This document shows, piece by piece, positions 299 through 62,979 of a stretch of DNA of 64,000 nucleotides. How positions within the stretch are numbered: the stretch's first letter is position 1; each line of letters starts with the position of its first letter. Made by a program: the position numbers and the translations under genes. The stretch is from IMG/VR virus record IMGVR_UViG_3300007513_000003; one strand, given 5' to 3'. The notes under the pieces are model-generated. The model saw nothing but the letters and a program-made list of their open reading frames with translations, was not told where the DNA came from and ran no database searches. This DNA is from a virus. Lineage: Duplodnaviria > Caudoviricetes.

Positions 299-749
299 AT
301 TCTAAGTTTATCAATTGAAGTTTTGAAAGTAACGAACACGTTAAACCCACCAATGTAGTAGTTAATGCTGTACTCATACCAGCAGCCATGTCGCGAATGA
401 CTTCTTTTGCCTGTCCGATGTTTGATAAATCTAGATCGTTAAACGAGCCACCAAGCATTATAATAAATCCAGTTACTGTTCCAATTAGTCCTAGTGATAC
501 CATCGACTCGGCGAAGAACCAAGATACTTCTATAGATCTAAAGTTTAATGGTTTGCGTTTAGAAACTTTGTATGTTTGTAACCCTATATTGGCTGTTACG
601 CCTGTAAACAATGCTATAATAAAGAAACTAATTTTTGTTTGGTCTAAATACCAAAGAGTACGCCACATATCAAAATAATATAATACTGCGGCACTACATG
701 CTATTACGCAGGTCAATAACCACCACTTTAAGAAACTATTAGACTTCAT
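279..749 (-). CDS. MotA/TolQ/ExbB proton-channel family protein
   Basis: WFFAESMVSLGLIGTVTGFIIML...AGMSTALTTTLVG is the family signature. Start moved to ATG 749, 5 nt after ATAAATA (755-761). Confidence 0.85.
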   Translation of the reverse strand: MKSNSFLKWWLLTCVIACSAAVLYYFDMWRTLWYLDQTKISFFIIALFTGVTANIGLQTYKVSKRKPLNFRSIEVSWFFAESMVSLGLIGTVTGFIIMLGGSFNDLDLSNIGQAKEVIRDMAAGMSTALTTTLVGLTCSLLSKLQLINLEYDHRKA

Positions 750-792
750 TAATATATTTATGTAAAAGAATATTATTATAAATATTTGTACC

Positions 793-1860
793 ATGCACGA
801 CAAAAAGTTCTTTTGTATAGAGCCTTTCGTAAGTCTTTCTATAGTTAAAGAAGATCATATTTTTCCTTGTTGTCTTAATGAAGGGCAAAAAAGCACTCAA
901 AAAGATGACCTATGGAACGATCCTTATCTTGAAAATATACGAAAACAAATTCTAAACAACGAAGTTCCTGAAGAATGTCGCGCCTGTGTTGAACAAGAAA
1001 AGTTTGGTCGATATAGCAGACGATTACATTCTAATGATGTTTGGTTAGAACAACACGGCAATTTTGAAGATGCTCTTGAAAATGATGCTCCGTATAAGTT
1101 AGATTTTTGGACTGGAAACTTGTGTAATTTGGCTTGTAGTACTTGTACATATACAAATAGTTCATCATGGTTTACACTTCTTAAAAAAGCAGATAAAGCA
1201 GGAAAAACTGATTTACGTTATAAAGGAAACTATGTAAGTAATTTAGATTACTCTTATGAATTTAAAAAAGAAGATATTCCGAATATTGACTTTAAAAATA
1301 TGGAAAATATACACTTCAACGGCGGTGAACCCTTGCTAACAGATTCACACTTTAAAATTTTAAATTTAATTCCGCCAGAACAAAGAAAGGATGTTTATGT
1401 CATTTATAACACAAACGGTACCGTCAGAATAGATTTAGAAGATGAAAAATGGAGTATTTTCAAAGAATACAAAAGTGTCGATATGTGTTTTAGTATAGAT
1501 GGCATTGAAGAAACATTTAATTATGTTAGATGGCCTGCTAAATGGGAAGAAGTACAAAGCAACATTGATCTATGGGCTGAATATTGTTATGGAAAATATG
1601 ATGACTGCCACTTTGAAATGAGTGTAAACATGGTAAAAACTCCGCACAATTATACAACGTTTGATAATGCCGTTAAATATGTCACTGATCGTTGGTTTAC
1701 CAAACTTATTGCGATTCGAAACGCAAGCATTGATGAATATGTGTTTACTACTAATGATCATTCTTTTATGGATTGGTCAGACGCACAATTTGAAGAATAC
1801 ACAAAGACAGAAGAATTTTTCTTGCAAACAAAAAATTTAGAAACACTACGAAATCTTTGA
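793..1860 (+). CDS. Radical SAM protein with N-terminal SPASM/Twitch-like Cys cluster
   Basis: CNLACSTC (CxxxCxxC), HFNGGEPLL, N-terminal C..PCC..CRAC; TATAAATA at 777-784. Confidence 0.9.
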   Translation: MHDKKFFCIEPFVSLSIVKEDHIFPCCLNEGQKSTQKDDLWNDPYLENIRKQILNNEVPEECRACVEQEKFGRYSRRLHSNDVWLEQHGNFEDALENDAPYKLDFWTGNLCNLACSTCTYTNSSSWFTLLKKADKAGKTDLRYKGNYVSNLDYSYEFKKEDIPNIDFKNMENIHFNGGEPLLTDSHFKILNLIPPEQRKDVYVIYNTNGTVRIDLEDEKWSIFKEYKSVDMCFSIDGIEETFNYVRWPAKWEEVQSNIDLWAEYCYGKYDDCHFEMSVNMVKTPHNYTTFDNAVKYVTDRWFTKLIAIRNASIDEYVFTTNDHSFMDWSDAQFEEYTKTEEFFLQTKNLETLRNL

Positions 1861-1869
1861 TAAATATTA

Positions 1870-1898
1870 TTGACATATTAAAGCAAAGATGCTATAAT
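1870..1898 (+). promoter_or_regulatory. Consensus sigma70 promoter for hsp20
   Basis: TTGACA (1870-1875), 17 nt, TATAAT (1893-1898). Confidence 0.85.
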
Positions 1899-1937
1899 AT
1901 GTAATATAAGTGCTCAATTGGGAGGCTTATAACTTTA

Positions 1938-1955
1938 CTCGCTTAATATAAGGAG
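1938..1955 (+). promoter_or_regulatory. ROSE-like SD-sequestering hairpin (putative RNA thermometer)
   Basis: CUC-G-CUU / AAG-GAG hairpin with a bulged G. Contains the UCGCU motif opposite the AGGAG SD of a small heat-shock gene. Confidence 0.55.
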
Positions 1956-2470: not shown

Positions 2471-2782
2471 TTAGTATAATCTATTTTTACTAGGTATTCT
2501 TTCTGCTTGCTCTTTAAGATGCCGCTTGCGGGCAACGTCTCTTGCTCTTTTTCTTTTAATACTTGGCTTTTCATAATGTTCGCGGGCTTTTAGTTCTTGC
2601 AATTTGCCGTCGTTGTCTATTTTCTTCTTAAGTTTACGTATTGCCTTTTCAACATTTCCGTCATTAACCCAAACTCTGAGTCCTGTAATTTTTACTGGAG
2701 CCCGTTTATCTTTTTGTTTGAATGGCGCTCTTCTATTATTATTCCATTTTGTATTTCTATTATTCCAAGTTTGTGCCATCAT
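2471..2782 (-). CDS. rpsU: Ribosomal protein bS21 with N-terminal extension
   Basis: VWVNDGNVEKAIRKLKKKIDNDGKLQELKAREHYEKPSIKRKRARDVARKR is a bS21 core, preceded by ~33 extra N/K/R-rich residues. Confidence 0.92.
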   Translation of the reverse strand: MMAQTWNNRNTKWNNNRRAPFKQKDKRAPVKITGLRVWVNDGNVEKAIRKLKKKIDNDGKLQELKAREHYEKPSIKRKRARDVARKRHLKEQAERIPSKNRLY

Positions 2783-3168: not shown

Positions 3169-5092
3169 CTTTACGTTTTAAGGTTGTTTGTAAGTATTCT
3201 TGTTCTTCTTCTGTAAACTCTGTAACACTTACACCATTATTTACACGTGACATTAAGTCGTCGATCTGTTTTTGACTTAATTTCTTTTGTTTGTCAGACT
3301 TGTTTAATTCTTTCTTAAGTTTTTCTATTTCTTTTTCTAACTTTTTAACTTTTTTAGTATCTTCTTTATGTACCACAAATGGTTTGCCTTCTAACTGTTC
3401 CTTTTCTACTACTTTCTTTTCTACAATTTTCTCTACAATAACTTCAACAGGAACTTCTTTAATCACTTCCTTTTCAACTATTACCTCTACTGGCACTTCC
3501 TTCTCAACCAGTTTCTCAACCTCTACTATCTTTTCAACTTCAACAGGAACTTCCTTTTCTACTATCTTCTCAACCTCTACTATCTTTTCTACAACCTTCT
3601 CTACTTCAACAGGAACTTCCTTCTCAACTAGTTTCTCAACTTCTACAATTTTCTCTACAACTTTCTCTACTTCGACAGGAACTTCCTTTTCTACTATCTT
3701 CTCAACCTCTACTATTTTCTCTACGACTTTTGGCTGATCAGTCTTTTTTTTACTAGCAGGTGGTTCTGTAGGTGGTGTTGGTTTTCGTGGTTTATCTGTG
3801 CGGAATCTTATTAGTGTCATATTACCAGCAATAACTAACAATACTGCTAATGGATCAAATACAAATATAATAACAATAATAACCCATCTTACAGCATCTT
3901 CCAGTAAGTCAGTCGTAATATCATTGCCATATATTAAACCAGCAATGTACTTAATTGGGCCCACTTCTGCTTCTAATTCTCTTACTTGGCTTGCTAACAC
4001 AAAACGTTCTTCATTTAATGTGTCTATTTGTGTATAATAGTTTTCAATTTCTATCTCTAACTCTTTTACTTTGCCTTCTACTTCGTCTGCTTTAACGCCC
4101 ATTTGCTCTTGTAATGATTTAATTTCATTATTAGCGGCGGTAATTTCTGCTTGTGTTTGCTGTCTTAACTCATCAATCTTTTGCTGATGTGGTTTAACTT
4201 TATTAGTGTAGTCTGCTCTTAATGCTGTTATTTGTTTTTGAACATCATCTGATACATCAATCTCTTTTTGTCGCAGTTCATTAATTTCGTTTTCAATTTC
4301 TCTAATTTGTGCGGCAAGTTCATCTCTGCGTGGTTGCTGTTCTTTTCTTAATTCTCTACCTTTTTCAACCCAATCTGTAATATTACCCCACGCACTTTTT
4401 TCTACACCTTTGTCTGTATATGCTTTAACATCAGTGTCTAATTGTGCTATTGTTTGATTAACACGCTCGATGGCTTGTTGTTTTACTACAACATCTTCTT
4501 GAACACGAGATTGTGCTACTTTAATGCGTTCTTCTTCTACGTCAATATTGTTTTCTAACTGCTCACGTAATGACTGTATCTGTGCTTCTTCTTGTGCTAT
4601 TAAACTGCTGACTCTATTCCAAGCACCATCACGTATTTGCTCTTGCTGTTCTATTGCTCTTGCTATATTTGTATTGTGTTGTCCTGTATCATTACTTTCT
4701 AATCTAGTAATTTTTTCTTTAGTAACATTTACTCTGCCATTATAGCGAGCAATTTTTTCATCAATACGTTCTACTTGTGCTTGTGCTTGTCCTGCGCCAG
4801 TAGTTTGTTCTACGTGGGCCTTGGATAAAAAGCCAAAGATACCCATAGAGGTAATAAACATTAGCACAACAACCGCAAGAGTAAGATAATACTTTAAAAA
4901 TTTAGGTATGTTGAACCAAAACTGGTAGAGCCACGAGGCAGTTACTAACTTACCTACTTCAAGAACCGCCCCCATAATAGCAATGGGTACAGCCGCGGCG
5001 GCAAATATAGCCATTAATCCTATAATGCTATAATATGCGGCAACGGCACTGATAGACAGCGCCGTCAATAGTACAAATAATGCAAAACCCAT
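3152..5092 (-). CDS. Membrane-anchored coiled-coil protein with VEK-rich repeats
   Basis: Three N-terminal TM helices, long heptad region, a further TM helix (WVIIVIIFVFDPLAVLLVIAG), then repeated EKIVEVEK/EKEVPVEV units; ATAAATA at 5101-5107. Confidence 0.85.
   Translation of the reverse strand: MGFALFVLLTALSISAVAAYYSIIGLMAIFAAAAVPIAIMGAVLEVGKLVTASWLYQFWFNIPKFLKYYLTLAVVVLMFITSMGIFGFLSKAHVEQTTGAGQAQAQVERIDEKIARYNGRVNVTKEKITRLESNDTGQHNTNIARAIEQQEQIRDGAWNRVSSLIAQEEAQIQSLREQLENNIDVEEERIKVAQSRVQEDVVVKQQAIERVNQTIAQLDTDVKAYTDKGVEKSAWGNITDWVEKGRELRKEQQPRRDELAAQIREIENEINELRQKEIDVSDDVQKQITALRADYTNKVKPHQQKIDELRQQTQAEITAANNEIKSLQEQMGVKADEVEGKVKELEIEIENYYTQIDTLNEERFVLASQVRELEAEVGPIKYIAGLIYGNDITTDLLEDAVRWVIIVIIFVFDPLAVLLVIAGNMTLIRFRTDKPRKPTPPTEPPASKKKTDQPKVVEKIVEVEKIVEKEVPVEVEKVVEKIVEVEKLVEKEVPVEVEKVVEKIVEVEKIVEKEVPVEVEKIVEVEKLVEKEVPVEVIVEKEVIKEVPVEVIVEKIVEKKVVEKEQLEGKPFVVHKEDTKKVKKLEKEIEKLKKELNKSDKQKKLSQKQIDDLMSRVNNGVSVTEFTEEEQEYLQTTLKRKDVLGE
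3410..3730 (-). repeat. Degenerate tandem repeat coding VEK(I/V/L)VE / KEVPVEV units
   Basis: Repeated caacaggaacttcc / ctactatcttctcaac blocks; ends approximate. Confidence 0.85.
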
Positions 5093-5192
5093 TGTACTAG
5101 TATTTATTGTTATATATAAACTTTATAACCACTAATTTTGCTGTAAATATGGGTAACCACACCGAGTGTGGTTATATTATGGAGGTATTATA

Positions 5193-6374: not shown

Positions 6375-6388
6375 TATTTATATAAATA
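6375..6388. promoter_or_regulatory. Overlapping divergent T4-type late promoters
   Basis: TATAAATA on minus (6375-6382) and on plus (6381-6388). Confidence 0.65.
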
Positions 6389-6421
6389 GTATAAAATAGA
6401 TACTATATATGGAGTAATAAT

Positions 6422-6682
6422 ATGGCAGCAAACGGAATTTCAACACTAGGAACAAGACAAGCAAGGCAAGATGCAAAACTTAATATTGCTGAAGCCAAGC
6501 GACAAGGTAAGGTTGTGGCAACTGATGGCACAATCACTGGCGCGGCTGATCCATCTAAACCATATTATAGAACTTTAAATACATTAGACAAGAATTTACT
6601 TCCTAATCCATATAACGGAAACAATGTCGCTCCGGATGATGGAGCAAGTGCGCCTTTAACTTCTGGTAGGCCCTGGACTTAA
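6422..6682 (+). CDS. Small late (probable virion) protein
   Basis: SD GGAG and late promoter upstream; MAANGISTL...GRPWT. Confidence 0.75.
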   Translation: MAANGISTLGTRQARQDAKLNIAEAKRQGKVVATDGTITGAADPSKPYYRTLNTLDKNLLPNPYNGNNVAPDDGASAPLTSGRPWT

Positions 6683-10536: not shown

Positions 10537-10827
10537 TTATGAACCTACTATAACATCAGGACTACCTACTGCCCTAGGGTGTCCGCATGTATCTATATCA
10601 ACATCAGTTCTTAATGCTGGTTTACCTTCAATAATAACTGATTCACATGTAGAAACGGTTAACGCACTACAATGCGATCCTGGATTCGGGCACGGAGCGT
10701 GGGGCGTCACTGACATGTCAGGAACACCTGCTTTCCTTCCGTTTATAAGAACAGACTTTGCACCACCAGTCGCAATGCCACCGGCCGTGTTAGGATCTTT
10801 TTCTCTTTGTGCTTTCCAACCTGACAT
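10537..10827 (-). CDS. PAAR-domain tail spike tip (T4 gp5.4-like)
   Basis: SVLINGRKAG, PHAPCP..HC, VIIEGKPALR, DTCGHP, GSPDVIVG; TATAAATA 5 nt upstream. Confidence 0.9.
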   Translation of the reverse strand: MSGWKAQREKDPNTAGGIATGGAKSVLINGRKAGVPDMSVTPHAPCPNPGSHCSALTVSTCESVIIEGKPALRTDVDIDTCGHPRAVGSPDVIVGS

Positions 10828-10861
10828 ATAGTTATTTATAACGTATTATAATAACTATTTA

Positions 10862-15161: not shown

Positions 15162-16994
15162 CTATGAATGTAAATATTCTATATAATATACAAGTGTTGC
15201 GGCCGAACCAGTACTGGTAGTAGTATATCGCATTGTTGCTGTACCAGCACTGTGCGTTACTGTAAATGTAACACCAGTTGCTCCAGTTTGAGTAATAGAA
15301 TCTGTTACAGTAGAAGCACCTGATTTAATTGCTATGCTAAGTTCGCCAACTTGTGATTCAGTACCTCTTGTTATACTATAATACATTTTTACATATTTAA
15401 CTTCCGACTCAAGGAAAGTAATACCAGTAGACGTGGCTGTTTGATTGTCTAGTAATGACAGTTGATTACTAATAGTATGCTCTCTTCTACCAAATAATTC
15501 CTTAGTGTCAGGTATTAATACATATCCGTCAGCGTGATTTAGTTGCACTCTGTCATATGTGCCAACATCACCATCTGTTCTACCAAATTTATCTGATATA
15601 CTTGTGCAATCTGAAACGTTTACGGAGTTAAAATTAATAACATCAGCAACAGCACTAGCAGTAGCATCTGCGTTGCCGTTATTGGCCACGTCAACAAATG
15701 TATTGCCTATAGAATAAATTCCTTGTGCGCGATCAACATCAATTGCTTCATAATCAATATCACGGAATAAAGAACTTGTAATTTTAATACTGTGTGGGCC
15801 TGTGCCTGATGCGGTTGTCTCACCTAACCAAAAACCTTTATACATTGTATCAAAGTTACAGTTATGGAATGATAATCCTTCGATAGCATCATTGGAATAA
15901 ACACCAAGTGGAACACCCTGGAACGAACAAGCATTAAAAACTAAGTTTCTTGTTCTTAGTGCGAGTGTTTCAGATATATTAAAACCGGCCGGTCTGTCAC
16001 TACTATTCAATCCATCAGTACTGTTATATGTGCCAACAAATGCTACATCTTCAAAATAAGAATTTAATGTAGAATCAATTTGAATACAGTCTTGAATTAA
16101 ATGTGTTGAATCAGTAGTTTTAATAGTCATACCTCTAATCACAATATTTTGCGGTTGGGTTGCACTATTATTACCAATATTTGGAGCGGCTTGGCCTTTG
16201 GAGTCAACTGTACGTATAACGCAACTATCATGCCCTGCCGTTTTACTTGACGTAATAGACACGCTGGCAGTTGAATAGCCGGCACCACCACTTACTTGTG
16301 TAAATGATGTAATTGCGCCGTCTGTTATATTTGCTGTAAATGATGCACCAGCACCATCACCTGTAATTGTTACAACAGGGGCAGTAGCATAACCAGCGCC
16401 TGGTGTGGCAACAGTTAATGAACTTACTGCGCCGGCAGTGATAGTCGCTGTGGCTGTTGCATTGGTTTGTGTCTCTTCATATTGTATAATTGTTTTTCCA
16501 GAGCCATCACCGTATAATGTCGCCCAAGTAGGAACTTCTATAGGTGCAGTGACTTTATATACACCTGCAGGGAAATATAAACTTCTGCGGGCCTTTTGTG
16601 TTGTGTCTCTAACAAACAGTTGGTATATTGCTCTTGCAATCGCCGCAGTATCATCTACTGTGCCGTTGCCACTGGCACCAAAGTCCATTATACTTACGTG
16701 GTCATCAAGTCTATCTTGCAATGTTCTAACAATAGGAGCTCCCGCCGTTGCGCCGGTATCTACTGTTGCGCTTGCATTGCCTTCATAAGTAAAATTGATG
16801 AGACCTGCTAAATCACTGTGTTCTGTTAGAATTGCTGTATTGCCAACTACAGGTGCACCAGCACTTAACGGCCCATTACCGATGTATAATTCTCTTGTGT
16901 TGGTTACCCAACCCAATTCAGCATGTGATAACTGTGGAAGATTTTCTGCTAACCCTCTACGATGTTGAATTCTAGAAATTTGTACAATTGCCAT
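15162..16994 (-). CDS. Tail fibre/spike-like virion protein with pectate-lyase-3-type beta-helix
   Basis: N-terminal QISRIQHRRG..PQL..AELGW..NTRELYIGNG; VSIMDFGASGNGTVDDTAAI..LYFPAGVY; late promoter 5 nt upstream. Confidence 0.75.
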   Translation of the reverse strand: MAIVQISRIQHRRGLAENLPQLSHAELGWVTNTRELYIGNGPLSAGAPVVGNTAILTEHSDLAGLINFTYEGNASATVDTGATAGAPIVRTLQDRLDDHVSIMDFGASGNGTVDDTAAIARAIYQLFVRDTTQKARRSLYFPAGVYKVTAPIEVPTWATLYGDGSGKTIIQYEETQTNATATATITAGAVSSLTVATPGAGYATAPVVTITGDGAGASFTANITDGAITSFTQVSGGAGYSTASVSITSSKTAGHDSCVIRTVDSKGQAAPNIGNNSATQPQNIVIRGMTIKTTDSTHLIQDCIQIDSTLNSYFEDVAFVGTYNSTDGLNSSDRPAGFNISETLALRTRNLVFNACSFQGVPLGVYSNDAIEGLSFHNCNFDTMYKGFWLGETTASGTGPHSIKITSSLFRDIDYEAIDVDRAQGIYSIGNTFVDVANNGNADATASAVADVINFNSVNVSDCTSISDKFGRTDGDVGTYDRVQLNHADGYVLIPDTKELFGRREHTISNQLSLLDNQTATSTGITFLESEVKYVKMYYSITRGTESQVGELSIAIKSGASTVTDSITQTGATGVTFTVTHSAGTATMRYTTTSTGSAATLVYYIEYLHS

Positions 16995-17009
16995 ATGTAT
17001 ATTTATACT

Positions 17010-19128: not shown

Positions 19129-19134
19129 GTATAT

Positions 19135-19176: not shown

Positions 19177-21057
19177 TTAACCTATACGTCTGGCTGGATT
19201 ATTCACCGTAAAAGAAGTATTACCAACTGTGACACTTACTGCTGGCTCATACCCATCACCTGGTTTTGGAAAACGGTAGTGTCCACGATTGCCATTGTTA
19301 AATCCTGTAAATACACCAGTATCTCCGCCCACAATAACAGTTGTTTTGGCATATTTGGAAGGCAACACTACAACAAGCTTATTATCTTTTTCAGATTTTG
19401 GTTTCCAAACTGCTCCAGCTCCCAAAGCACTGAATGAATGAATCCCTATAAAAGTTGTAATAGATCCGCCGTTGCCGCCGTCCTTGTCGCCGACTGAAGC
19501 CCAAGCACTTGCTTTATCATGATTCAAAGTAATATTACCGGCAGTAACTGTCACTGACGATAACTTACTAGTGACTGGCCAACTAGATACATTGTGATGT
19601 AACCAAGATGCACCGACCATACCACTTGATTGTGATGATGTTGTCGATCCGCCCGGTGCAGGCCAAGTAACTTTAATTAAGTTAGATCTTTCGTTAACAT
19701 TTCTTTCGCTTCCCCGCGCTAAACCAGATACCATAAAATAGAGTGTTTCTCCTGTGCTTGGAGACCAAGACGCCAATGGCGGCTGTTTTATATGGTCACC
19801 ATTTACGGCTTTTCGTGATTTAGTTACTTGTCCCGGGCGCATCCATTCCCACGTGGCTGCATACCAATGGCCACTTAAATTAACAAATACCCATGGATTT
19901 GCGGCGACCGGTACACCATTAATAGTGACAGTGCCTCCGACGGGGATCTCGTCTATCAACGAGCCACCAGTTAACAGTTTTCCTGTTGGACTAAATGTTG
20001 TTACGTTAGATACATCTTGGACTGTGCCATCTCCACTGTTTATAATGCCAGGCACTCTTGCGAAATCATTATCTACTTCCGTACGGAATAAACCAATTCC
20101 TGATAATTGTCCCATTGAATTATCAATGTTTCCTGCCATAGTATTGATTAAACCCATTACTGCGTTAAGGGCACCATTCGTATCGCCTGGATCTGCAAAG
20201 TCGTATGATCCGCCGCTTATATCTGTATTTAAATCTTCATACAGGTAATTCTCTGTTCCCATTGCTTGGCCGGCAGGTCTCATTACTACTTGTCCATTTC
20301 CTTTATCACCTAAGCCAAAAAAGTTTATCTTTGTTTGTGGGTGTATTGGCTCAGTTAATCCTTCGACTGGCGCAAGGACTCCACTAGTACTTTGTGTTAA
20401 AGCTTCGCCTGACCTTTCTTTAGGCCCCACTGGCCCCATTTGGTCAGGTTTGCCTATAACTAGTGTATCATCTATTATTGAGATATGATCTAATATCGTA
20501 TTATTCCAATTAATTACCCATTTAATAGGTTCAGTTACTCTTGCATCAAACCAATTTCCAGGATGTATTTGGTATCCTAGTTTTCGAAAATGAGTAAGAA
20601 CAGCATTAATTTGTTTGTGTCTTTGGAAAATCTGTGGTTCTTTTTCTTTTATAGCGGCCATAAGTTCTGGCATTGTCATATCTTGGGCATCAGGAATCTC
20701 CATAATGGAAGTGAAAGGATCACCTGTCCATGCCGCGCCATATTGAAATATTTCTTCAAGTAAAAACCAATGGCCATATGTATACTTGCCAGCCATCACT
20801 GGGCCAGTATCTACTACTGCCCTAACATTTCCTGCTTCTGACGATGTTTTAAGAACTTGATTAATGAACTGTACTTCTTGCTTTACAGATGCATCGCCTA
20901 ATATTGTTCTACTGCGTAACGTAGTCGCAGGCGGTGTTTCAGTATTATCTCCAGTAGTACCTACAGCCGGATCATATGTATACCGTATAGTTGTAGGAGT
21001 TCCATACGCTCCGGTTGAGACTTCATCAGTATCATCAGTATTATTATCGTCAGTCAT
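19177..21057 (-). CDS. Multi-domain late protein of unknown function
   Basis: 626 aa, TATAAATA 5 nt upstream; mosaic of beta-rich modules. Confidence 0.75.
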   Translation of the reverse strand: MTDDNNTDDTDEVSTGAYGTPTTIRYTYDPAVGTTGDNTETPPATTLRSRTILGDASVKQEVQFINQVLKTSSEAGNVRAVVDTGPVMAGKYTYGHWFLLEEIFQYGAAWTGDPFTSIMEIPDAQDMTMPELMAAIKEKEPQIFQRHKQINAVLTHFRKLGYQIHPGNWFDARVTEPIKWVINWNNTILDHISIIDDTLVIGKPDQMGPVGPKERSGEALTQSTSGVLAPVEGLTEPIHPQTKINFFGLGDKGNGQVVMRPAGQAMGTENYLYEDLNTDISGGSYDFADPGDTNGALNAVMGLINTMAGNIDNSMGQLSGIGLFRTEVDNDFARVPGIINSGDGTVQDVSNVTTFSPTGKLLTGGSLIDEIPVGGTVTINGVPVAANPWVFVNLSGHWYAATWEWMRPGQVTKSRKAVNGDHIKQPPLASWSPSTGETLYFMVSGLARGSERNVNERSNLIKVTWPAPGGSTTSSQSSGMVGASWLHHNVSSWPVTSKLSSVTVTAGNITLNHDKASAWASVGDKDGGNGGSITTFIGIHSFSALGAGAVWKPKSEKDNKLVVVLPSKYAKTTVIVGGDTGVFTGFNNGNRGHYRFPKPGDGYEPAVSVTVGNTSFTVNNPARRIG

Positions 21058-21065
21058 AATAATAT

Positions 21066-21617
21066 TTATAATAGTTTTAGTTTTGTAAGATACAACTGTA
21101 AATCTTTATCATTAACACCTTTAACAGTGCTAGCTGCCTTATGTAAAGCTACTCCAGAATTATCTCCTCGTTTTTTATATTGTATATAATACTTTGCCGC
21201 CAACTTATATGCCTTATTTTTTATTGCTGTCATTAGTTTACCTTCATCAAGTTCCAATTCAGCATATTTGTTATTCATTACCGCAGGCTTTAATTTAAAC
21301 CCTGGGTCTGGTATAATTATTTCATATTTGTCTGTAGTTTTTGTTGATGTTTCTTTAGGCATACCATCTTTTTTTAATTGTTGAAAACTGTTTTTACTTA
21401 ATTGTTTTACCCAATTTTTTTGTTTCTTACCTTTGGGATTAGTCCAAATCAATTGAAATATTTTCTTTTTAGTAGCTCCAGCTCCCAGGCGATACTCTCT
21501 TTCTTCTCCTTCATCAAGTCCATGCCATTCTTTAAATGTTTTAACACCCATTGCGTTTTGCACAGTTCTAAACAGTGTTAAAGCATCTTTACTATTAGCA
21601 AATTCGAAAAGTCTCAT
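21066..21617 (-). CDS. Putative internal head protein
   Basis: Start moved to MRLFEF (TAATG coupling). Confidence 0.6.
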   Translation of the reverse strand: MRLFEFANSKDALTLFRTVQNAMGVKTFKEWHGLDEGEEREYRLGAGATKKKIFQLIWTNPKGKKQKNWVKQLSKNSFQQLKKDGMPKETSTKTTDKYEIIIPDPGFKLKPAVMNNKYAELELDEGKLMTAIKNKAYKLAAKYYIQYKKRGDNSGVALHKAASTVKGVNDKDLQLYLTKLKLL

Positions 21618-23561: not shown

Positions 23562-24041
23562 TTAAAAAACGCAATTATAATATAGTTGCGTTAAGTTGTC
23601 TTTTGCCTCTTGGGCATTCCAAACGTAGGTTTTAACTCTAGATTCTATAAAATCTACTTTAAACCAATCGCTTTCTTCAGCATAATACTTAATTTTTTCT
23701 TTGGATATTAATAATTTTTCAACTGCATTGCCATATTTTATATCGCTCTCGAGTACTTGCTTATATTTTACTTGATCACCATTATTATGAAAAACAGCCA
23801 GCATAATAGCAGCCTTTTTTGTGTATATATTTTTCTCGATAATTGAATAACCTTTGTTATATCCTTTCTTAAGAACATATCCATTTTGTGTTTTTCTAAT
23901 TCGAATATCGCCTACTTTTATGCCTTTATTAAGTTTTTTAATTTTTAAATAATGTAATCTTCCATGCTTTTCTAACTTCTCCATCATGTCGTCATACATG
24001 TCCGAAAAAGTCGCATCGATTTTTTTCTTAGATTGGTTCAT
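23562..24041 (-). CDS. Hypothetical late protein
   Basis: TTAAATA 5 nt upstream of ATG. Confidence 0.65.
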   Translation of the reverse strand: MNQSKKKIDATFSDMYDDMMEKLEKHGRLHYLKIKKLNKGIKVGDIRIRKTQNGYVLKKGYNKGYSIIEKNIYTKKAAIMLAVFHNNGDQVKYKQVLESDIKYGNAVEKLLISKEKIKYYAEESDWFKVDFIESRVKTYVWNAQEAKDNLTQLYYNCVF

Positions 24042-24077
24042 ACTAATATTTAACCGTATACGGTTGTTTAAAAAATA

Positions 24078-25376: not shown

Positions 25377-25906
25377 TTCTTACCGCCTTTCATGTTAAAG
25401 TTCTCGCTTAGGTATTCGTCTAGAGCATCTTCACCAGTTGGACTAATTGCCCAAGCACCATCGCCACCATAAATTAAACCTGAGCCATCTAGTTCATCAT
25501 ATAATCTGCTCATAGCAGGTGTAAGACTGTGTGAATCTTCTTCAAAGTCCATACCTAATTCGTCTGCTGTGGCTATTGCTTTTAACAATAGCATGCCGCC
25601 GTGTCCTTTATTACGAAACTCTGGGAATATTTCTGCAAAGTTACGCACATTATCTTCGTTGCGTGTATGTGTATATTGTCCTGCGTGTTTACCGTCTACG
25701 TATAAATCTACAGTAAAACCATTTTTTTGTTTGGTTACGCGAAACTGCTTACCGTCAACAAAGCTTTCGTTTGTAAGTAATTTTGGCTTTCCGCTACCAA
25801 GTCCTAACTTTTTAACATTAGCATATTCGCTTCCAATTGGAGCGTCTTTTGTGGCATTTTGTTTTGTAATAATGCCTACTGCTTCAGTTAATTCTGCAAT
25901 TTTCAT
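25373..25906 (-). CDS. Putative internal head protein with GNAT acetyltransferase-like motif
   Basis: Leader MKIAELTEA; EIFPEFRNKGHGGMLL matches GNAT motif A. Confidence 0.6.
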   Translation of the reverse strand: MKIAELTEAVGIITKQNATKDAPIGSEYANVKKLGLGSGKPKLLTNESFVDGKQFRVTKQKNGFTVDLYVDGKHAGQYTHTRNEDNVRNFAEIFPEFRNKGHGGMLLLKAIATADELGMDFEEDSHSLTPAMSRLYDELDGSGLIYGGDGAWAISPTGEDALDEYLSENFNMKGGKK

Positions 25907-25913
25907 ACTGTAT

Positions 25914-26504: not shown

Positions 26505-26640
26505 TAATTGATTTATGATTGGGTGTGGCGTTTTGTTTTGTAACGAGTTCTGCTTTACCTTTACTATACTGCTCGTCATACCATTTACGTAAATTTTCTA
26601 GAATACGTAAATCTTCTGTAAGTAATTCGTTTATTAACAT
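26458..26640 (-). CDS. Short putative internal head protein, possibly truncated
   Basis: Leader MLINELLTED; overlaps the next gene by 47 nt. Confidence 0.5.
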   Translation of the reverse strand: MLINELLTEDLRILENLRKWYDEQYSKGKAELVTKQNATPNHKSINERLIPYSLHGRIMR

Positions 26641-28924: not shown

Positions 28925-28949
28925 AACAACTCCTAAAATGTGTAATAAT

Positions 28950-40420: not shown

Positions 40421-40435
40421 AACATAAATACAGTT

Positions 40436-44953: not shown

Positions 44954-46106
44954 TGCCAAATGTGCCAGAAAAGCCAAAGAAAATTCTATTTCTATTAAAG
45001 TCATCTGTAACTATATGAGAAAAATCCATCTCAAAGTTTAATGAGTTATCATCTTTCTCAAACAAATTGAATGTTTTTTTAGTTCCATACATTTGATAGT
45101 TGTCCGTCAAGTCAAACTTTAATTCAAAATCATAACTAGTGTGTAGGTAATAGGCGCCTATAGCAATGGCGGCTATACCTATGACTGCTAGAGCAGTATC
45201 AGAATCACTATTTTTCTTCTTAGGTGCATCTTCATGGCCACAGTATGTTATGTTTCTACCATTGCCTGTACCTACGGCACCCATAGAGCACATTAGATCA
45301 CCTAATGCTTTTGCTTGTGCCGACTCACTGAATAACGAATACTCAGAAACTACTACTGGTTTGCCCAGTTTCAATGCCTCAGTCAACATTCTTTTTGCTG
45401 TCTCTACATCTGATATGTAATCACCTGTAGTATGTCTACCTATTTGTAGATAGATGTAATCTGCATTGGTGTAGTATCGTGTATCGTGTTTGTATCCACC
45501 AACACCATCTGACAAATGTACCGCAACAGGTTTGTCTGTCTTTGACTTTATGAAAGCAACATAATCATTCACTTGTTCGGGTGACCAATACTCATCACAT
45601 TCTAGACAAGCAACATAGGCAGATGCTTGGTCATCATAGAGTCGGATGATTTTCTCCATGAATACCTTGTGGTGGGCGGCATTACCTTTCCAATCCCTGT
45701 GTGCAGATTCGGGTGTCATCCACAATACAGGTTTGAGTCCTGCTTGATTTAGTTCTATAAGTCTTTGCCTAAAGTTATCATTGGGGTCTACTATACCACC
45801 TGGCAAATGACCTCTAGAGGCACGGACATACATATCAATATGTGTATCACCGGTGTTGACTAGTCGTTGTCTAAAGTTTGCTCGTTCTGCATCTGTCCAA
45901 GTGTTAGACAAATACATTAAGGTTGTGTTAAACTTCTTTGACTGATCGCCAGTGTGTGGGCCTATCTTGCCTAATAGAAACGATGATCTTACGCCGTGAA
46001 GTGAATATGTTTTATCGTATGCTTGGCTTACACTTATACCTACTATGCTTAAACAAGAAAGATATATTACTAGTAGCGTGGGCCAAATAATTCGTCGAAT
46101 ATTCAT
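44946..46106 (-). CDS. Exported protein of unknown function
   Basis: Signal peptide, alpha/beta core, internal TM-like segment, beta-strand C-terminus; CTAAATA 5 nt upstream. Confidence 0.7.
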   Translation of the reverse strand: MNIRRIIWPTLLVIYLSCLSIVGISVSQAYDKTYSLHGVRSSFLLGKIGPHTGDQSKKFNTTLMYLSNTWTDAERANFRQRLVNTGDTHIDMYVRASRGHLPGGIVDPNDNFRQRLIELNQAGLKPVLWMTPESAHRDWKGNAAHHKVFMEKIIRLYDDQASAYVACLECDEYWSPEQVNDYVAFIKSKTDKPVAVHLSDGVGGYKHDTRYYTNADYIYLQIGRHTTGDYISDVETAKRMLTEALKLGKPVVVSEYSLFSESAQAKALGDLMCSMGAVGTGNGRNITYCGHEDAPKKKNSDSDTALAVIGIAAIAIGAYYLHTSYDFELKFDLTDNYQMYGTKKTFNLFEKDDNSLNFEMDFSHIVTDDFNRNRIFFGFSGTFGNG

Positions 46107-46145
46107 ATGAATATTTAGTTGTTTTCATATGAATATTTAGTTGTT
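46102..46145. repeat. 22-bp tandem duplication of a late promoter plus ATG
   Basis: TTCATATGAATATTTAGTTGTT x2. Confidence 0.9.
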
Positions 46146-46672: not shown

Positions 46673-47095
46673 TTAAAATGGTGGATCATCATCAGTAGGA
46701 TCACTAATTTGATCATCTGCTGGTTTGGGTTTGTAATCTGGATTTTTAACTATTTGTTTTGTTCGTGGGTTAATTATATAATATTGGTGTGTTCTGTCTT
46801 TTGATCTAGCCGGAATTGGGTTACCTTTAATTGTAGGGCGTGTAGGATTACCAGCATCATCATAATCCGGAGTAGATGGAGAGCCCGGACCTGTATTCAT
46901 ATATTTTGTATGAACGAGTTTTTCCAGTGAAGCCATCTGCTTTACTAATAATATAATTTCGGATTGTAAATCTTTATTTTCAAGTTTAACCTTATCAATT
47001 TTGTCTATTAGACTTTTGTGTTCTAATTTAATATCGTCTAATTCTTTGATTAAGTCGTGGTACTTTTTATAAAGATCGCTAACTTGTGAACTCAT
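46673..47095 (-). CDS. Hypothetical coiled-coil late protein
   Basis: ATAAATA 7 nt upstream. Confidence 0.6.
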   Translation of the reverse strand: MSSQVSDLYKKYHDLIKELDDIKLEHKSLIDKIDKVKLENKDLQSEIILLVKQMASLEKLVHTKYMNTGPGSPSTPDYDDAGNPTRPTIKGNPIPARSKDRTHQYYIINPRTKQIVKNPDYKPKPADDQISDPTDDDPPF

Positions 47096-47108
47096 TGCTT
47101 ATTATTTA

Positions 47109-56835: not shown

Positions 56836-58203
56836 TTAGTAACCTTGTGTAATTTCGTCTGCCCATTCTTCTACTAGATCTGCTTCATCTTTAAATGACT
56901 TGCTTTCTACTGCGTGAGTATATCTTACACGTTGAGTATATTCTTCATCTTCGTTAATACGGCCCAAGTCGCTTACATATTTCTTTGCTAGTTGTACTGC
57001 TAATGCACCTTCCTCTGATTCGGAAAGTTCTGCACCAACAAACTTATGTGCAAACTCTCTAACAATGTCATTGTCAACAATACGATTGCTGATATCTTCT
57101 AGAGCAGTGCTCACTAAACTTCTTACATCATCGTGCTGAACTGAACGAGCAAATTGATCTGTATCAACTGAACTCTCTAATACTAGATCACCGCTTTCAA
57201 TAAACTCTCTGATTTGGTTTAGTTTGTTTGCTTTATTTTCCATAGCAGTTTTGTAAATGCTATTAATTAATGGTAGGGACTCAAATACGCTTTCATCAAA
57301 CTTCTTAACTGTAAAGAAGTCTTTCATTTCATCTAAGTTATCTTCGGATAGTGTTTCTTCTTGTGCTTCAAAACTTTCTGCAAATGAGGTGTATCCACGT
57401 GCTGTTGAGATACGTGCTAAACTGCTCCTAATACCATTGTAAGCATCACGTACACTTTCTACAATGTCTGCTGTATCTTCATTTACTAAGCTATTGCGTC
57501 TGCTGTATGCTACAAAGTTCTTTAATTGGCCTAATTGGTTAACATTGTTAACAATGTGTGTGCCAATGTCATCATGCAAGTTGCCACCTTCACTAATGTG
57601 CCTTGCAACTGCTCTTGCACCTAGTAAGTTAGTAAATGGAAGTAGTGTTCTTTCACCGCTTGTAGTTTCAACAAAAATTTTGCTAATATTTCTACTGCGT
57701 GATCCTCTAACTTCTTCATCTACTGGGCGTCTATGTCTGACAATAATTCTTGCAGTCTCACCTAAATCTTGGTAACTACTTTTAATGCTACCATACATTT
57801 TTGACTCGTTCATATCACTATCCTTAAATTCTGCTTGCTGATTGCGTAAAAATTCAAAATCTTTTCTTTCCAAATTGGACTTATTAATATCTCTTACATC
57901 AAACGTCAACATTCTGCGTTTTGCAAATTGACGCATTTCTTTTAAAAAATTATACCATTGCTGTTTACTATCACCCAAACTTTCTACTAAATCATTACCA
58001 TAGTAAACTTTAAATTTGTCGTCTACTAAACTAATAGTAACTGTGCCAACGTCTGTACCATTGTCTTCAAATACAAAATCAAAGAAGCGGGCTTCTCTTG
58101 GCTCAAGTGTTTTCATTGCACTTGCATCACCAATTGTTAGTGTTGGATAAACTGATCTTAATTTATTAAAAAGATCTTCAGCAATTTTTTCAATATTTTC
58201 CAT
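56836..58203 (-). CDS. Late virion-associated protein
   Basis: 455 aa; ATAAATA 6 nt upstream; next to terL. Confidence 0.65.
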   Translation of the reverse strand: MENIEKIAEDLFNKLRSVYPTLTIGDASAMKTLEPREARFFDFVFEDNGTDVGTVTISLVDDKFKVYYGNDLVESLGDSKQQWYNFLKEMRQFAKRRMLTFDVRDINKSNLERKDFEFLRNQQAEFKDSDMNESKMYGSIKSSYQDLGETARIIVRHRRPVDEEVRGSRSRNISKIFVETTSGERTLLPFTNLLGARAVARHISEGGNLHDDIGTHIVNNVNQLGQLKNFVAYSRRNSLVNEDTADIVESVRDAYNGIRSSLARISTARGYTSFAESFEAQEETLSEDNLDEMKDFFTVKKFDESVFESLPLINSIYKTAMENKANKLNQIREFIESGDLVLESSVDTDQFARSVQHDDVRSLVSTALEDISNRIVDNDIVREFAHKFVGAELSESEEGALAVQLAKKYVSDLGRINEDEEYTQRVRYTHAVESKSFKDEADLVEEWADEITQGY

Positions 58204-58218
58204 TGTTAGTATTTATGC

Positions 58219-59802
58219 TTAAACCACAATAAACGGCATTGGCATATCTTGTTCAGAATCAATATCATCCTTTAATCTATCAAATAATCCAGTATCCCAT
58301 TGCCTTACTTCATAACTCATTCGAACTATCAACAATGTAGCAGATACTAAATCATCTGTTTCGCCGTCTTTTGCGGCATAACTTTGCCCTCTTGCTATAT
58401 ATGTTTTTAGTTCAGAGATTAAATTTTTACTTTTTATTTCAATTTTATCTGTTTCAATTAGGTTTTTTAATCTACTACATGCTAATAACTTTGATTTATG
58501 CGTAGTATTAAAACCTTTTCTAAATCTACGCGAATTGCCGTGCTTTTTAGTCTCAGATAAAAATATACCTTTAAACTGTTCTTCACCTAGATCATCTATA
58601 ACGACTAATGCCGCTTCGCCTAGTGTATTATTTTCTATACTAAACCATATTTGTGGTGTATCTAAATTCTTTGCACCTATTTCTTCTGCAATATAATATG
58701 TAATATCTCTTAATATTTTTATTTGTCCTTGTACTGGTGTTTTATTATGCATCCACTCTGCTACTTGTTTCATTGTAGGTATTTCAAATACCTGTATAGC
58801 GGCATTGTCTCCACCTGTGCCTAAACTTGGATCCAATGCTATTAAGTAATTGTGTCCTTTTTGTGGCTTGGTGTACCATTTAACTTGACCGTGTTTTTCC
58901 AATACATGTATTGGACGTAATGATGCCAATACGCGAGAGTCAATTAATGTCTCGTCGTTAATAACAAACTCGCAATCATGTTCGCGAGCAAAGCGTTCTG
59001 CACCAATGCGTCCTAGTTCTTCCTGTCGCCACTTCTCATCACGCTCTGGATGTTCGTTCCAATATGCTCTAAACGCAAAAAAGCCATTGCGTCCTACGTC
59101 TGTTTCATTACCGTAATCATCAATAGTTTTATTTGCGTCTCTCCAAATCATAGCAAACTGGTCTTCATCACTGTTTGGCGTTGAGGTAATAATAGCACCA
59201 CCGCCTGTTGCTAGTGTTGGAGATATGGACGTCCAGAATTCTTTCGCAATGCTAGGCTTTACAAACGCAAACTCGTCTAAGTATAGTAGTGAGATGGACA
59301 AACCACGTCCTGTGTTTTCTGTAGTAGTTGTGCTAACAATTCTACTACTGTTATCAAAGTCTATACTACCTTTATTATATGAATAAACACCCGGACGAAT
59401 AAAATCAGGAACGTCTTCATATGAATATCGTATGCGTTGCATAATCTCTTGTGAGCCAGCATACTTGTGCGCCGCAACAAGTATTGTGCTATCTGGAATA
59501 AACATAGCATGCCATAACAAATATCCTGCCGCGGTGGTAGTTTTACCAGTTTGCCTAGGCATTAGATTAACACTAAATCTATGTTTGTGATAACTGTCCA
59601 ACAAACGTGTTTGATATTCATACGCATGGTATTTTATTCTACCTCTGCGTGGATGTTGTATCCAAAAATAGTTCTCTAAAAAATAAGCAGGGCCGGTGTC
59701 AGGATCAGCACATTTTGCCAGTTCCAATAACTGTTCATCTGTGTATGATTCTCTAGTGTGTGCTTTTTTGACTAAATTGCCGTCAAGTGATTTATTGGAC
59801 AT
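58219..59802 (-). CDS. terL: Terminase large subunit
   Basis: MPRQTGKT, LYLDEFAF, ITSTPN, ALDPSLGTGGDN, TDDLV. Confidence 0.95.
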   Translation of the reverse strand: MSNKSLDGNLVKKAHTRESYTDEQLLELAKCADPDTGPAYFLENYFWIQHPRRGRIKYHAYEYQTRLLDSYHKHRFSVNLMPRQTGKTTTAAGYLLWHAMFIPDSTILVAAHKYAGSQEIMQRIRYSYEDVPDFIRPGVYSYNKGSIDFDNSSRIVSTTTTENTGRGLSISLLYLDEFAFVKPSIAKEFWTSISPTLATGGGAIITSTPNSDEDQFAMIWRDANKTIDDYGNETDVGRNGFFAFRAYWNEHPERDEKWRQEELGRIGAERFAREHDCEFVINDETLIDSRVLASLRPIHVLEKHGQVKWYTKPQKGHNYLIALDPSLGTGGDNAAIQVFEIPTMKQVAEWMHNKTPVQGQIKILRDITYYIAEEIGAKNLDTPQIWFSIENNTLGEAALVVIDDLGEEQFKGIFLSETKKHGNSRRFRKGFNTTHKSKLLACSRLKNLIETDKIEIKSKNLISELKTYIARGQSYAAKDGETDDLVSATLLIVRMSYEVRQWDTGLFDRLKDDIDSEQDMPMPFIVV

Positions 59803-59829
59803 AACTGTATTTAACAGTTTTTAAGGGGG

Positions 59830-60879: not shown

Positions 60880-60880
60880 T

Positions 60881-61483
60881 TTAATTAGTTCCTACTGGTG
60901 ATGTAGTACCCATCGGTGCTTTCAAAAATTCGTCCGGCTCGTGCTCAATTTCACTACTTGGATCTTTTGCAAAATTAACCATATCAAACAATCTACCTTT
61001 GCGTTTTTCATCTTCATCTGCAAGCATCTTATCTGTGTGTTCTTGTCCAGCAGGTAAGTCGCCTTCTGATTCTGGATAATCACTATCTAATAGTGATTCT
61101 GGTTTAGCATCTGGATCCTTTTCGTCTAGTTCCTTTTGGTCTTTGTCATTTTGAACTTCTTCTGGATGATCTGGACTACGAACAACAATATGACTTTCAG
61201 GAATTCCTAACATGCTATGAATATAATTTTGTAATACGTTGGGAGTAGTAGGATATTCTAATACAATATCTACAATATAAATTTCACCAGCTCCTAAATT
61301 ACCAAAATCCATTGGATGTTTTTGCATAATTGTTTTGTTTGCTTTAGATACGCTTTTAACGCCGTATCTATTCAAACATCCTTCTAGGCGATCTAAGTGT
61401 TCGTCTGTAATATCTACAGCAAACTTCAATCTAAAAGGATAATCTGTTTTTGCTTCTGTAATGTATTGTTTTAAACTTTTCAT
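60881..61483 (-). CDS. Putative virion protein with T4 CTS-like leader
   Basis: MKSLKQYITEAK; late promoter at 61513-61519. Confidence 0.65.
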   Translation of the reverse strand: MKSLKQYITEAKTDYPFRLKFAVDITDEHLDRLEGCLNRYGVKSVSKANKTIMQKHPMDFGNLGAGEIYIVDIVLEYPTTPNVLQNYIHSMLGIPESHIVVRSPDHPEEVQNDKDQKELDEKDPDAKPESLLDSDYPESEGDLPAGQEHTDKMLADEDEKRKGRLFDMVNFAKDPSSEIEHEPDEFLKAPMGTTSPVGTN

Positions 61484-61529
61484 AAGGGTACTCTTTTAAG
61501 TTTTATATTACTTATTTATTTAAATCACA

Positions 61530-62021
61530 CTATTTTTTATCTTTGCTGTCTTTATTTTGATCTAGGATTTGCTTAATTAGTTCGTTGCGATCTGCTACAA
61601 TAGTTGCTTCTGCTTCTATTTCTAGTCCGCCAACATCCCTTTCTTGTTGATCTACACGTTGCTTCTTAATTTGCAATTCAACCATACGCAATTTCTTATC
61701 AATTTTTGCGGCTTTAGCATCAATGGCGTTCTTCATCATAGTGCCTGCTACTTCAAATATCTTACCTGCGTATCGTGCTTCTACATTCATGCCCAAATCC
61801 ATTAGATCATTAAATGTTGTTATGGACTTTTCAGCAATGTTGTCCATTTCTTTATCATTAGATTCTAAATCTCTAACTAGTGGTAATGCACTATCAATTT
61901 TATCTACATCGCTTAATACTGACTGTAGTTTTGTTGCTTCTTCGGGTTTAAAGTCCGAGGGCTTCTCTTCTTCTTGCTCTGATTGTGCTAAATCAAAAAG
62001 TTCTTCTAGTTTTTTTGTCAT
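61530..62021 (-). CDS. terS: Probable terminase small subunit
   Basis: Helical; FNDLMDLGMNVEARY..IFEVA; close to terL; TTAAATA 5 nt upstream. Confidence 0.6.
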   Translation of the reverse strand: MTKKLEELFDLAQSEQEEEKPSDFKPEEATKLQSVLSDVDKIDSALPLVRDLESNDKEMDNIAEKSITTFNDLMDLGMNVEARYAGKIFEVAGTMMKNAIDAKAAKIDKKLRMVELQIKKQRVDQQERDVGGLEIEAEATIVADRNELIKQILDQNKDSKDKK

Positions 62022-62025
62022 AACG

Positions 62026-62979
62026 TTATTTAATCACTCCGCATACTTCTAAACATGTCTTTCGATACAATCCTTGGGAAAATTCTTTTGCTATGTTTAA
62101 AGTTTCAATATCATAAACTTCTTTTCTTTCATCTTCCCAAAAACAGCAAGGATGAATTACGCCATCTGCGCTTATAAAAAGTTGATAATGCTCATCATCG
62201 TCAGAGCACTGTAAATGATCACAAACATTTGGATCGACATAATTATTGGAAATAATCTTATCTAAATAGGCTTTTTTATCTACTTCATTTGAAATTGCTG
62301 TGTTTTCGAATACTTGAGTCTTTACTGAGTCATATGAATTATTATCTTCATCAGGAAACTCTAATAAATATCTTTCATTAGTTTTCCAATGAAATGCCTC
62401 TGGCACATAGGGCAATTCTGTATAAAATTCTGAAAACCCTAATTTATGAGACAATTCCCTTGCCTCTTCAACTTGGTGCTGGTTATGTTTAAACGTTAAA
62501 AATTTCCACACCGCGTGGCCGCCGGCGTCGATATATGCCTTTGCATTATCTATTATTTTATTAAAATTTGTGCCTTGTCTATAGATATGATTTGTATCCT
62601 CTAGTCCATCAATTGAGAAAGTAACTTCAAGTTGATTGCTTTTATAACTTCCTAAATCGGCCCACCAAGTCGTAGATCTTAAACTACCGCTTGTGTGCAT
62701 TGAAACAAAAAATTCTCTGTTATCGAATGATACCAATCTTAAAAGATCTTTAAGATGCTTATAGGCTGCAGGGTCTCCTCGATTTCCACATAAATGAATA
62801 TTTTTTAATATATTACATTTATTAACAAAATCAATAAAAAAATCTAGATCAAGATCAATTAATTCAAAATTGTCTTTAAGTCCATATCCATTATTATTGC
62901 GCGGACATCCTGGGCAACTAGCATTACATTTGGTTGTTGGCTCTACATGAACAATTGTTATTTTATTCCATATTTCCAT
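62026..62979 (-). CDS. Radical SAM protein (paralog of 17010..18449)
   Basis: CNASCPGC, LCGNRGD, FSIDGLEDTNHIYR, IHPCC. Confidence 0.9.
   Translation of the reverse strand: MEIWNKITIVHVEPTTKCNASCPGCPRNNNGYGLKDNFELIDLDLDFFIDFVNKCNILKNIHLCGNRGDPAAYKHLKDLLRLVSFDNREFFVSMHTSGSLRSTTWWADLGSYKSNQLEVTFSIDGLEDTNHIYRQGTNFNKIIDNAKAYIDAGGHAVWKFLTFKHNQHQVEEARELSHKLGFSEFYTELPYVPEAFHWKTNERYLLEFPDEDNNSYDSVKTQVFENTAISNEVDKKAYLDKIISNNYVDPNVCDHLQCSDDDEHYQLFISADGVIHPCCFWEDERKEVYDIETLNIAKEFSQGLYRKTCLEVCGVIK

Follow-up and report, generated by a model that had tools for sequence, protein, structure and literature searches.

Does an uncultured marine phage start its late mRNAs at the AUG itself? The question is raised by a 64-kb stretch of IMG/VR virus record IMGVR_UViG_3300007513_000003 (64,000 nucleotides [nt]; hereafter, the window), in which the hexamer TAAATA recurs just before start codons. 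A preliminary description, made from the sequence, read this hexamer as a late promoter core lying 4 to 7 nt before the ATG of at least 12 genes, with no room for a Shine-Dalgarno (SD) sequence. It proposed that the phage makes two classes of late mRNA, leaderless and SD led, and that these, together with a phage-encoded ribosomal protein bS21, could re-tune host ribosomes. All 13 sites on its list were found when the sequence was read back; their spacers are correct and SD sequences are absent from every one. Below, sites with a TAAATA box a few nt before the ATG are called fused, and N5 denotes a 5-nt spacer. Our analysis makes it likely that the box is a T4-type late promoter with the A of the ATG as position +1, so that leaderless late mRNAs would exist alongside a late class that is SD led.

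The window has approximately 36% GC, and its DNA is present in marine and seawater metagenome runs. Its large terminase (terL) matches PF03237/PF17289, and the terL DNA shows distant kinship to the jumbo phages PA5oct, RaK2, and Atu_ph07, which places the window phage in the PA5oct/RaK2-like jumbo group. A relative of this terL is encoded in 466 IMG/VR contigs, including G001, a contig of 322,647 bp with an estimated completeness of 90%. The window contains T4-style replication genes (gp32-like, UvsX-like, UvsY-like, a DnaB-like helicase, primase, and ribonucleotide reductase [RNR]) and virion genes (PAAR, baseplate wedge, structural proteins, terL, and a weak small-terminase match), in addition to the bS21 gene. 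PHROG and Pfam annotation assigned no function to most of the fused genes.

TAAATA lies at a fixed distance from start codons

Spacers were counted between each TAAATA and downstream ATGs that open an open reading frame (ORF) of at least 60 codons, and the background in the window was taken as the mean per spacer over spacers 11 to 60. At a spacer of 5 nt, the window contains 11 ATGs, 9 of which open ORFs of at least 96 amino acids (aa), compared to an expectation of approximately 0.64 ORF-opening ATGs per spacer (Poisson P = 2.8e-8). The preliminary description had named a spacer histogram against controls as one way to check its claim, and this excess bears out the spacing. The two discounted N5 matches are a 22-nt tandem duplicate at 46128 and an antisense chance match at 17723. 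When the distance to the nearest upstream TAAATA is measured for the called window genes, 14 genes fall at 4 to 8 nt and none at 11 to 18 nt, which marks two separate groups.

The same spacing recurs across relatives. Pooled over 80 IMG/VR relatives, a spacer of 5 nt was found 160 times, versus 16 times for 4 nt and 9 times for 6 nt. G001 contributes 34 N5 sites against a background of 2.6 (P ~ 2e-26), and the signal is confined to ATG, since GTG and TTG occur at this spacer at the background level, once each.

Chance or base composition can be ruled out as the cause by two controls. Among 15 permutations of its letters, TAAATA is the rarest hexamer in the window (107 copies), and a positional peak is seen only for TAAATA and its frame-shifted readings. 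Moreover, when every hexamer was scanned without bias at 25 offsets before ORF-opening ATGs, TAAATA at spacer 5 came out on top for the window, G001, and the cultured phage HTVC008M; in T4 and PA5oct, the same scan puts SD-like hexamers on top. A repeated mobile cassette was also rejected, as flanks and spacers vary between sites with the exception of one local 22-nt duplication, and use of the TAA in the motif as an upstream stop codon explains just 2 of 12 sites.

The fused sites have the geometry of T4-type late promoters

A review of T4 late genes describes their promoters as an 8-bp TATA box without a -35 element, with the first T numbered -13, such that the T4 late box TATAAATA spans -13 to -6. 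In this numbering, TAAATA occupies -11 to -6, and the 5-nt spacer would therefore put the A of the ATG at +1. The position 6 nt past the box is A in 64% of T4 late promoters and in 66% of the SD-led promoters of the window's clade, with C at only 2 to 4%; this A-rich position is the one taken by the A of the ATG in the fused class. The base at -1 is a pyrimidine in 160 of 168 distinct N5 sites (95%; T in 79%), compared to 51% of controls (P = 6e-32). Bacterial RNA polymerase prefers a pyrimidine at -1 and a purine at +1, and the fused sites fit this preference. The stronger T at -1 in the fused class can be interpreted as fitting the need for an exact start. Otherwise, the spacer is variable and poor in G, and the TAAATA core is invariant by the selection of sites. 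A σ70 -10 element is ruled out, as TAAATA mismatches TANNNT.

We propose a late promoter of the T4 type with TAAATA as its core. Such a -10-like box, which has no -35 element, would be read by the host RNA polymerase in association with a gp55-like sigma factor from the phage. The N5 spacing would set +1 at the A of the ATG, and about a dozen window genes, most of them for virion and packaging proteins, are predicted to be leaderless: AUG would be the 5' end of their mRNAs, and translation would not involve an SD. In a second set of probable late genes, the same box lies 19 to 53 nt upstream, followed by a conventional SD-bearing leader. Where exactly transcription starts, that expression is late, and that translation is leaderless are all predictions of this scheme.

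What lies upstream of the box is also informative. The box is the only conserved element at the fused sites, preceded either by unconserved sequence or by a terminator or tRNA. A strict hairpin with a T-run lies 2 to 10 nt before the box in 30 of 173 distinct sites, versus 7 of 905 control starts. In many relatives, terL is headed by a GC-rich hairpin, a T7 run, 2 to 3 nt, TAAATA, a variable N5, and the ATG; the hairpin shows compensatory changes in 3 of 9 pairs and none broken. Two minus-strand TAAATA-N5-ATG sites in G001 (267545 and 274029) start 0 to 8 nt past the 3' ends of tRNAs (…GGTTCGAATCC…ACCA, then TAAATA), and the divergent window genes 749 and 793 have only 43 nt between their ATGs. 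Such upstream terminators, tRNAs, and short divergent gaps leave no room for another promoter or a leader. In the window itself, the 180-nt gap before terL (59803 to 59982, minus strand) contains a strong GC hairpin (GCGGCGGGGA…TCCCGCCGC) without a T-run, at the place where more distant relatives have a canonical terminator.

Orthologues and gene content separate two probable late classes

Seven window sites keep N5 in G001, although the spacer sequence differs. In the G001 orthologues of genes 749 and 46106, about 24 nt of leader containing AGGAG or GGAGG separate TAAATA from the ATG; for gene 749, the orthologue has the same start residue and a 24-nt leader with AGGAG. In these two genes, the box thus stays while the mode of translation would change through the gain of an SD leader. 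This behavior of orthologues at fused sites is what would be expected if the box is a promoter.

All fused genes with an assignable function belong to virion formation or packaging (PAAR, baseplate wedge, structural protein, terL, and a terS-like gene). The fused motif is absent from the replication genes of the window (RNR, DnaB-like, primase, helicase, UvsX, UvsY, and gp32-like). Gene labels given earlier for PAAR, terL, and bS21 (PF01165) were confirmed, whereas the terS label at 62021 finds weak support, a match to phrog_445 (E = 5.5e-5).

The SD-led class comprises around a dozen window genes with TAAATA 19 to 53 nt upstream, including 6422, 8725, 30078, 30546, and 33682, and most have AGGA or GGAG at SD distance. 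For the four late genes first described as SD led (6422, 28924, 30078, and 30546), boxes were indeed found, 33, 110, 31, and 53 nt upstream, with GGAG or AGGAG. Several independent lines indirectly support both the T4-type late-promoter reading of TAAATA and its division into a fused and an SD-led class, and sequence data and comparisons with relatives support the two-class reading of the late genes well; the proposed coupling to bS21, treated below, is not supported.

Relatives encode a gp55-like sigma factor

T4 late promoters depend on the sigma factor gp55, the co-activator gp33, and the sliding clamp gp45. A gp55-like late sigma is encoded in four of five long relatives (phrog_12791; E = 1e-75 to 1e-79) and also matches T4's own family, phrog_234, with E values of approximately 1e-25. 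One carrier, G004, has a terL 93% identical to that of the window. Such a sigma is likewise present in PA5oct, Salicola phage SCTP-2, and HTVC008M.

The pattern also exists in culture. Of two T4-like myoviruses of SAR11 Pelagibacter, HTVC008M has 12 N5 sites against approximately 1 expected, and Mosig has 11 N5 matches against 3 control matches. RefSeq places the starts of the HTVC008M genes for the tape measure, end protector, head closure, tube cap, and wedge at these sites. Its divergent end-protector and head-closure genes (18916/18943) have 26 nt between their start codons, which equals two back-to-back boxes, and some sites in these cultured phages follow terminators, as in the window clade. 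These phages share bS21 with the window phage but differ in their ordinary-sized genomes of 141 to 147 kb, their short T4-type gp55 sigma, and their short bS21. In HTVC008M, a region annotated with curli CsgF/CsgG/CsgB-like genes (7562 to 9557) is also headed by TAAATA-N5-ATG.

In sister clades, terL and a few other genes begin with TAAGTA-N5-ATG, and the spacer is 5 in every case; TAAGTA may be a variant of the box that has co-evolved with the sigma. In PA5oct, AATTAG occurs at spacer 5 before ORF-opening ATGs (n = 8, versus a median of 0 at other offsets) and may represent a different fixed-distance signal.

RNA contigs and points against leaderless initiation

Assembled RNA contigs from four marine metatranscriptomes were placed on window positions 14001 to 34000. 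For gene 19177-21057, contigs from two studies end at 21025, and a contig from a third ends at 21046, where an adapter is joined; the upstream gene is not reached by any of them. These ends are compatible with a transcript boundary near the ATG, as a weak hint. The stretch upstream of 25906 has no RNA contig coverage. A contig of one relative crosses a late promoter, implying that read-through RNA or contaminating DNA is present. An Illumina adapter is joined 12 to 13 nt before the ATGs of the SD-led genes 29707-30078 and 30217-30546 (30090-30091 and 30559, minus strand), at AGGAG; lying off the predicted starts, these ends may mark a processing site or a fragment end. In each of the four runs, RNA contigs are deepest at these same two genes. 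A search for contigs encoding the window PAAR protein returned long DNA scaffolds only.

Several points weigh against placing +1 at the ATG of a T4-type late promoter. The RNA contigs have no start resolution and their depth cannot rank genes, and the adapter-joined end in gene 19177-21057 lies 11 nt inside the gene rather than at the ATG. The strong T at -1 of the fused class is not mirrored in the SD-led promoters and could reflect something besides start-site choice. Bases 5' of the core are relaxed compared to T4, with T at -13 in 17% and A at -12 in 51%. Strings of co-directional genes contain many of the fused sites, and read-through transcripts would carry the gene there too. The gp55-like sigma is found in relatives and was not found within the 64-kb window, and searches with T4 gp45 and PF02916 gave no clamp match in G001, G002, G004, or PA5oct; even in HTVC008M, the Pfam match is weak. 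Finally, the control gene starts are crude, being the first ATGs of long ORFs, and sites from related contigs are not phylogenetically independent.

Alternative explanations for the fixed spacing

The box could be a genuine late promoter while the fused genes are expressed mainly from polycistronic or read-through RNA, or from a start a few nt off the A, with translation relying on coupling or on an A/U-rich context. Most window sites do lie 5 to 40 nt past a co-directional upstream gene, the motifs at 21057 and 25906 contain the stop codon of that gene, spacers of 4, 6, 7, and 8 nt occur, and the RNA contig of the relative mentioned above runs across a late promoter. We nevertheless consider this explanation unlikely, given the sharpness of the spacing in relatives (160 N5 sites against 16 N4 and 9 N6), the restriction of the peak to ATG starts, and the sites past terminators and tRNAs or in divergent pairs, which have no upstream translation to couple to; an in-frame upstream stop is overlapped by just 2 of the 12 motifs. 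TAAATA at -11 to -6 might instead be a translation-initiation element on leadered mRNAs, for example an A/U-rich site for the ribosome or S1, that replaces the SD and is not a promoter at all. It sits where an SD would normally be, in genes that have none, and the T at -1 is specific to these genes. Such a role is very unlikely for a box that also precedes SD-led genes by 19 to 53 nt, that orthologues retain when they insert an SD leader, and that early and replication genes, translated by the same ribosomes, do without. It would also leave aside the match to the T4 late box, the gp55-like sigma of relatives, and the position of the box after terminators and tRNAs, where a promoter is required, and the spacing is much sharper than that of SD sequences.

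RNA ends near the AUG could also arise if the motif marked a site at which an endonuclease trims polycistronic late RNA. T4-family phages process their mRNAs, the T4 review points out that mapped 5' ends may stem from processing, and in two SD-led window genes the AGGAG coincides with RNA ends joined to an adapter. This explanation seems extremely unlikely, since it does not account for the gp55-like sigma, the T4 late box match, or the A at box+6 in T4 and in the SD-led class, and sites after terminators or in divergent pairs have no precursor RNA to be cut. A T4-type late promoter fused to the start codon appears to be the best explanation of the fused sites.

The phage bS21 gene and the leaderless class

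The bS21 of the window matches PF01165 over residues 37 to 88 (E = 4.4e-16; 58.8 bits against a cut-off of 27), behind an N-terminal extension of about 36 aa rich in N, K, R, and W; the extension is conserved in G001 to G003, where the corresponding ORFs have 120 to 122 aa. Short bS21 proteins of 67 to 86 aa are encoded by PA5oct, HTVC008M, and two sister-clade contigs, and Mosig also has a short one. The gene comes last in an operon that starts behind the N8 box at 5092, and it is preceded by a strong SD of its own (GGAGGA). It resembles phage-encoded bS21 genes reported previously (Mizuno 2019; Chen et al. 2022, PMC9723584), being a PF01165 gene that an aquatic jumbo phage carries in a late-type operon. 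The nearest cellular bS21 proteins come from Nitrospirota, Alphaproteobacteria, Oligoflexia, and Geobacter (45 to 61% identity), with no Bacteroidota among the top 80; as these homologues are scattered, no host was called from bS21.

The preliminary description suggested that the leaderless class and bS21 form one system that re-tunes host ribosomes toward phage late mRNAs. Both occur together in the window, G001 to G003, HTVC008M, and Mosig, the N-terminal extension of the clade's bS21 is unusual, and expression of phage bS21 has been linked to the late stage (Chen et al. 2022, PMC9723584), in a study that does not discuss promoters or leaderless mRNAs. The comparative evidence goes the other way. 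bS21 is present in PA5oct-like phages and in SCTP-2, which have the same sigma family, yet neither PA5oct (3 spacer-5 sites, background 2 to 3) nor SCTP-2 (24 pattern matches against 19 control matches) shows an N5 excess. HTVC008M has the fused class beside an ordinary short bS21, and the bS21 gene of the window is itself SD led. In addition, a cryo-electron microscopy study with the leaderless lambda cI mRNA found that Escherichia coli ribosomes lacking bS21/uS2 translate leaderless mRNA better (PMC10491246). Because PA5oct and SCTP-2 lack the pattern and bS21/uS2-deficient ribosomes favor leaderless mRNA, the link to bS21 is left unsupported, and a joint system is quite improbable. If anything, extra bS21 would rather serve the SD-led class. 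An equally doubtful extension would have the leaderless late regulon and the extended bS21 split the ribosomes between 5'-AUG and SD-led messages, as a phage-run two-channel translation program in aquatic phages.

Comparison with known promoters and leaderless systems

The window phage and T4 share the TAAATA core, the lack of a -35 element, AT-rich sequence downstream, an A 6 nt past the box, the association with virion genes, and a sigma of the gp55 family, known here from relatives. In contrast, T4 late genes have leaders, and their spacers peak at approximately 28 nt without an excess at 5 nt; the window clade is less strict at positions -13 and -12, and its sigma is a longer, PA5oct-type protein of about 270 to 290 aa (phrog_12791). 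The new element is the fusion of a late promoter to the start codon throughout a whole gene class, which T4 does not have. The leaderless mRNAs of lambda cI (PRM), mycobacteria, Deinococcus, and archaea are similar in that a -10-type element is fixed a few nt before the ATG, without an SD and with a strict AUG. Those systems use -10 boxes of housekeeping sigma factors (TANNNT), unlike the phage late-sigma box found here, and the leaderless class of the window phage is predicted to be a temporally regulated phage regulon. In our literature search, no paper turned up that describes T4-type late promoters making leaderless mRNAs.

Should the start sites be confirmed, the pattern would represent the first case of a phage late regulon made up of leaderless mRNAs, with a minimal 8-bp promoter doubling as the entire 5' end of a gene. 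Such an arrangement would explain how independently regulated late genes can stand directly after terminators and tRNAs or back to back within 26 to 43 nt. It also provides gene finders with a strong start-codon signal in a large group of uncultured aquatic phages, and it makes the efficiency of 5'-AUG translation in marine hosts a question of interest. The occurrence of the pattern in the cultured SAR11 phages HTVC008M and Mosig makes the idea directly testable. The two natural mRNA classes could serve to probe the function of phage bS21, which the present data do not tie to the leaderless class.

Features of the window

The individual sites are collected in Table 1.

Table 1. Promoter boxes with their start codons and the bS21 gene in the window. 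Positions are those of the window; N followed by a number gives the spacer between box and ATG.
Element	Position	Strand	Gene and remarks
TAAATA-N5-ATG	747..760	-	Gene 279-749, no assigned function; divergent from gene 793
TAAATA-N8-ATG	779..795	+	Radical SAM gene 793-1860; predicted 3-nt leader; N8 also in G001 orthologue
Phage bS21 gene	2471..2782	-	SD GGAGGA; ATGA overlap with upstream gene
TAAATA-N8-ATG	5090..5106	-	Heads operon 5092, 3152, 2779, bS21 (in this order); N7 in G001 orthologue
SD-led: TATAAATA, 33 nt, ATG	6383..6424	+	Gene 6422; SD GGAG
TAAATA-N5-ATG	10825..10838	-	PAAR protein gene (ATG 10827); N5 kept in G001
TAAATA-N5-ATG	16992..17005	-	Baseplate-wedge-like gene 15162-16994; N5 kept in G001
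TAAATA-N5-ATG	21055..21068	-	Gene 19177-21057; TAA of motif is stop codon of upstream ORF
TAAATA-N5-ATG	24039..24052	-	Gene 23562-24041
TAAATA-N4-ATG	25904..25916	-	Gene 25373-25906; motif contains stop codon of upstream gene
ATAAATC-N5-ATG variant	26502..26516	-	Gene 25914-26504; start uncertain, ORF open upstream to 26579
TAAATA 110 nt before ATG	28922..29040	-	Gene 28676-28924; SD AGGAG
SD-led: TATAAATA, 31 nt, ATG	30076..30115	-	Gene 29707-30078; SD AGGAG
SD-led: TAAATA, 53 nt, ATG	30544..30605	-	Gene 30217-30546; SD AGGAG
SD-led: TATAAATA, 29 nt, ATG	33680..33717	-	Tail-assembly-chaperone-like gene 33194-33682
TAAATA-N5-ATG	40425..40438	+	Gene 40436-42061
Two tandem CAACTAAATATTCATATG copies, 22 nt apart	46104..46139	-	Downstream copy heads gene 44946-46106
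TAAATA-N7-ATG	47093..47108	-	Gene 46673-47095; N5 in G001 orthologue
TAAATA-N6-ATG	58201..58215	-	Virion structural (portal-like) gene 56836-58203
TAAATA-N5-ATG	59800..59813	-	Large terminase gene (ATG 59802); arrangement kept in most of 80 relatives
TAAATA-N5-ATG	62019..62032	-	Small-terminase-like gene 61530-62021

The head-to-tail pair of CAACTAAATATTCATATG copies at 46104-46139 (minus strand) looks like a duplicated promoter plus start; its upstream copy opens just a 38-codon, out-of-frame ORF. Apart from these elements, the window encodes five radical-SAM-type genes (793-1860, 17010-18524, 36150-37892, 39107-40420, and 62026-62979), one of which has a B12-binding domain.

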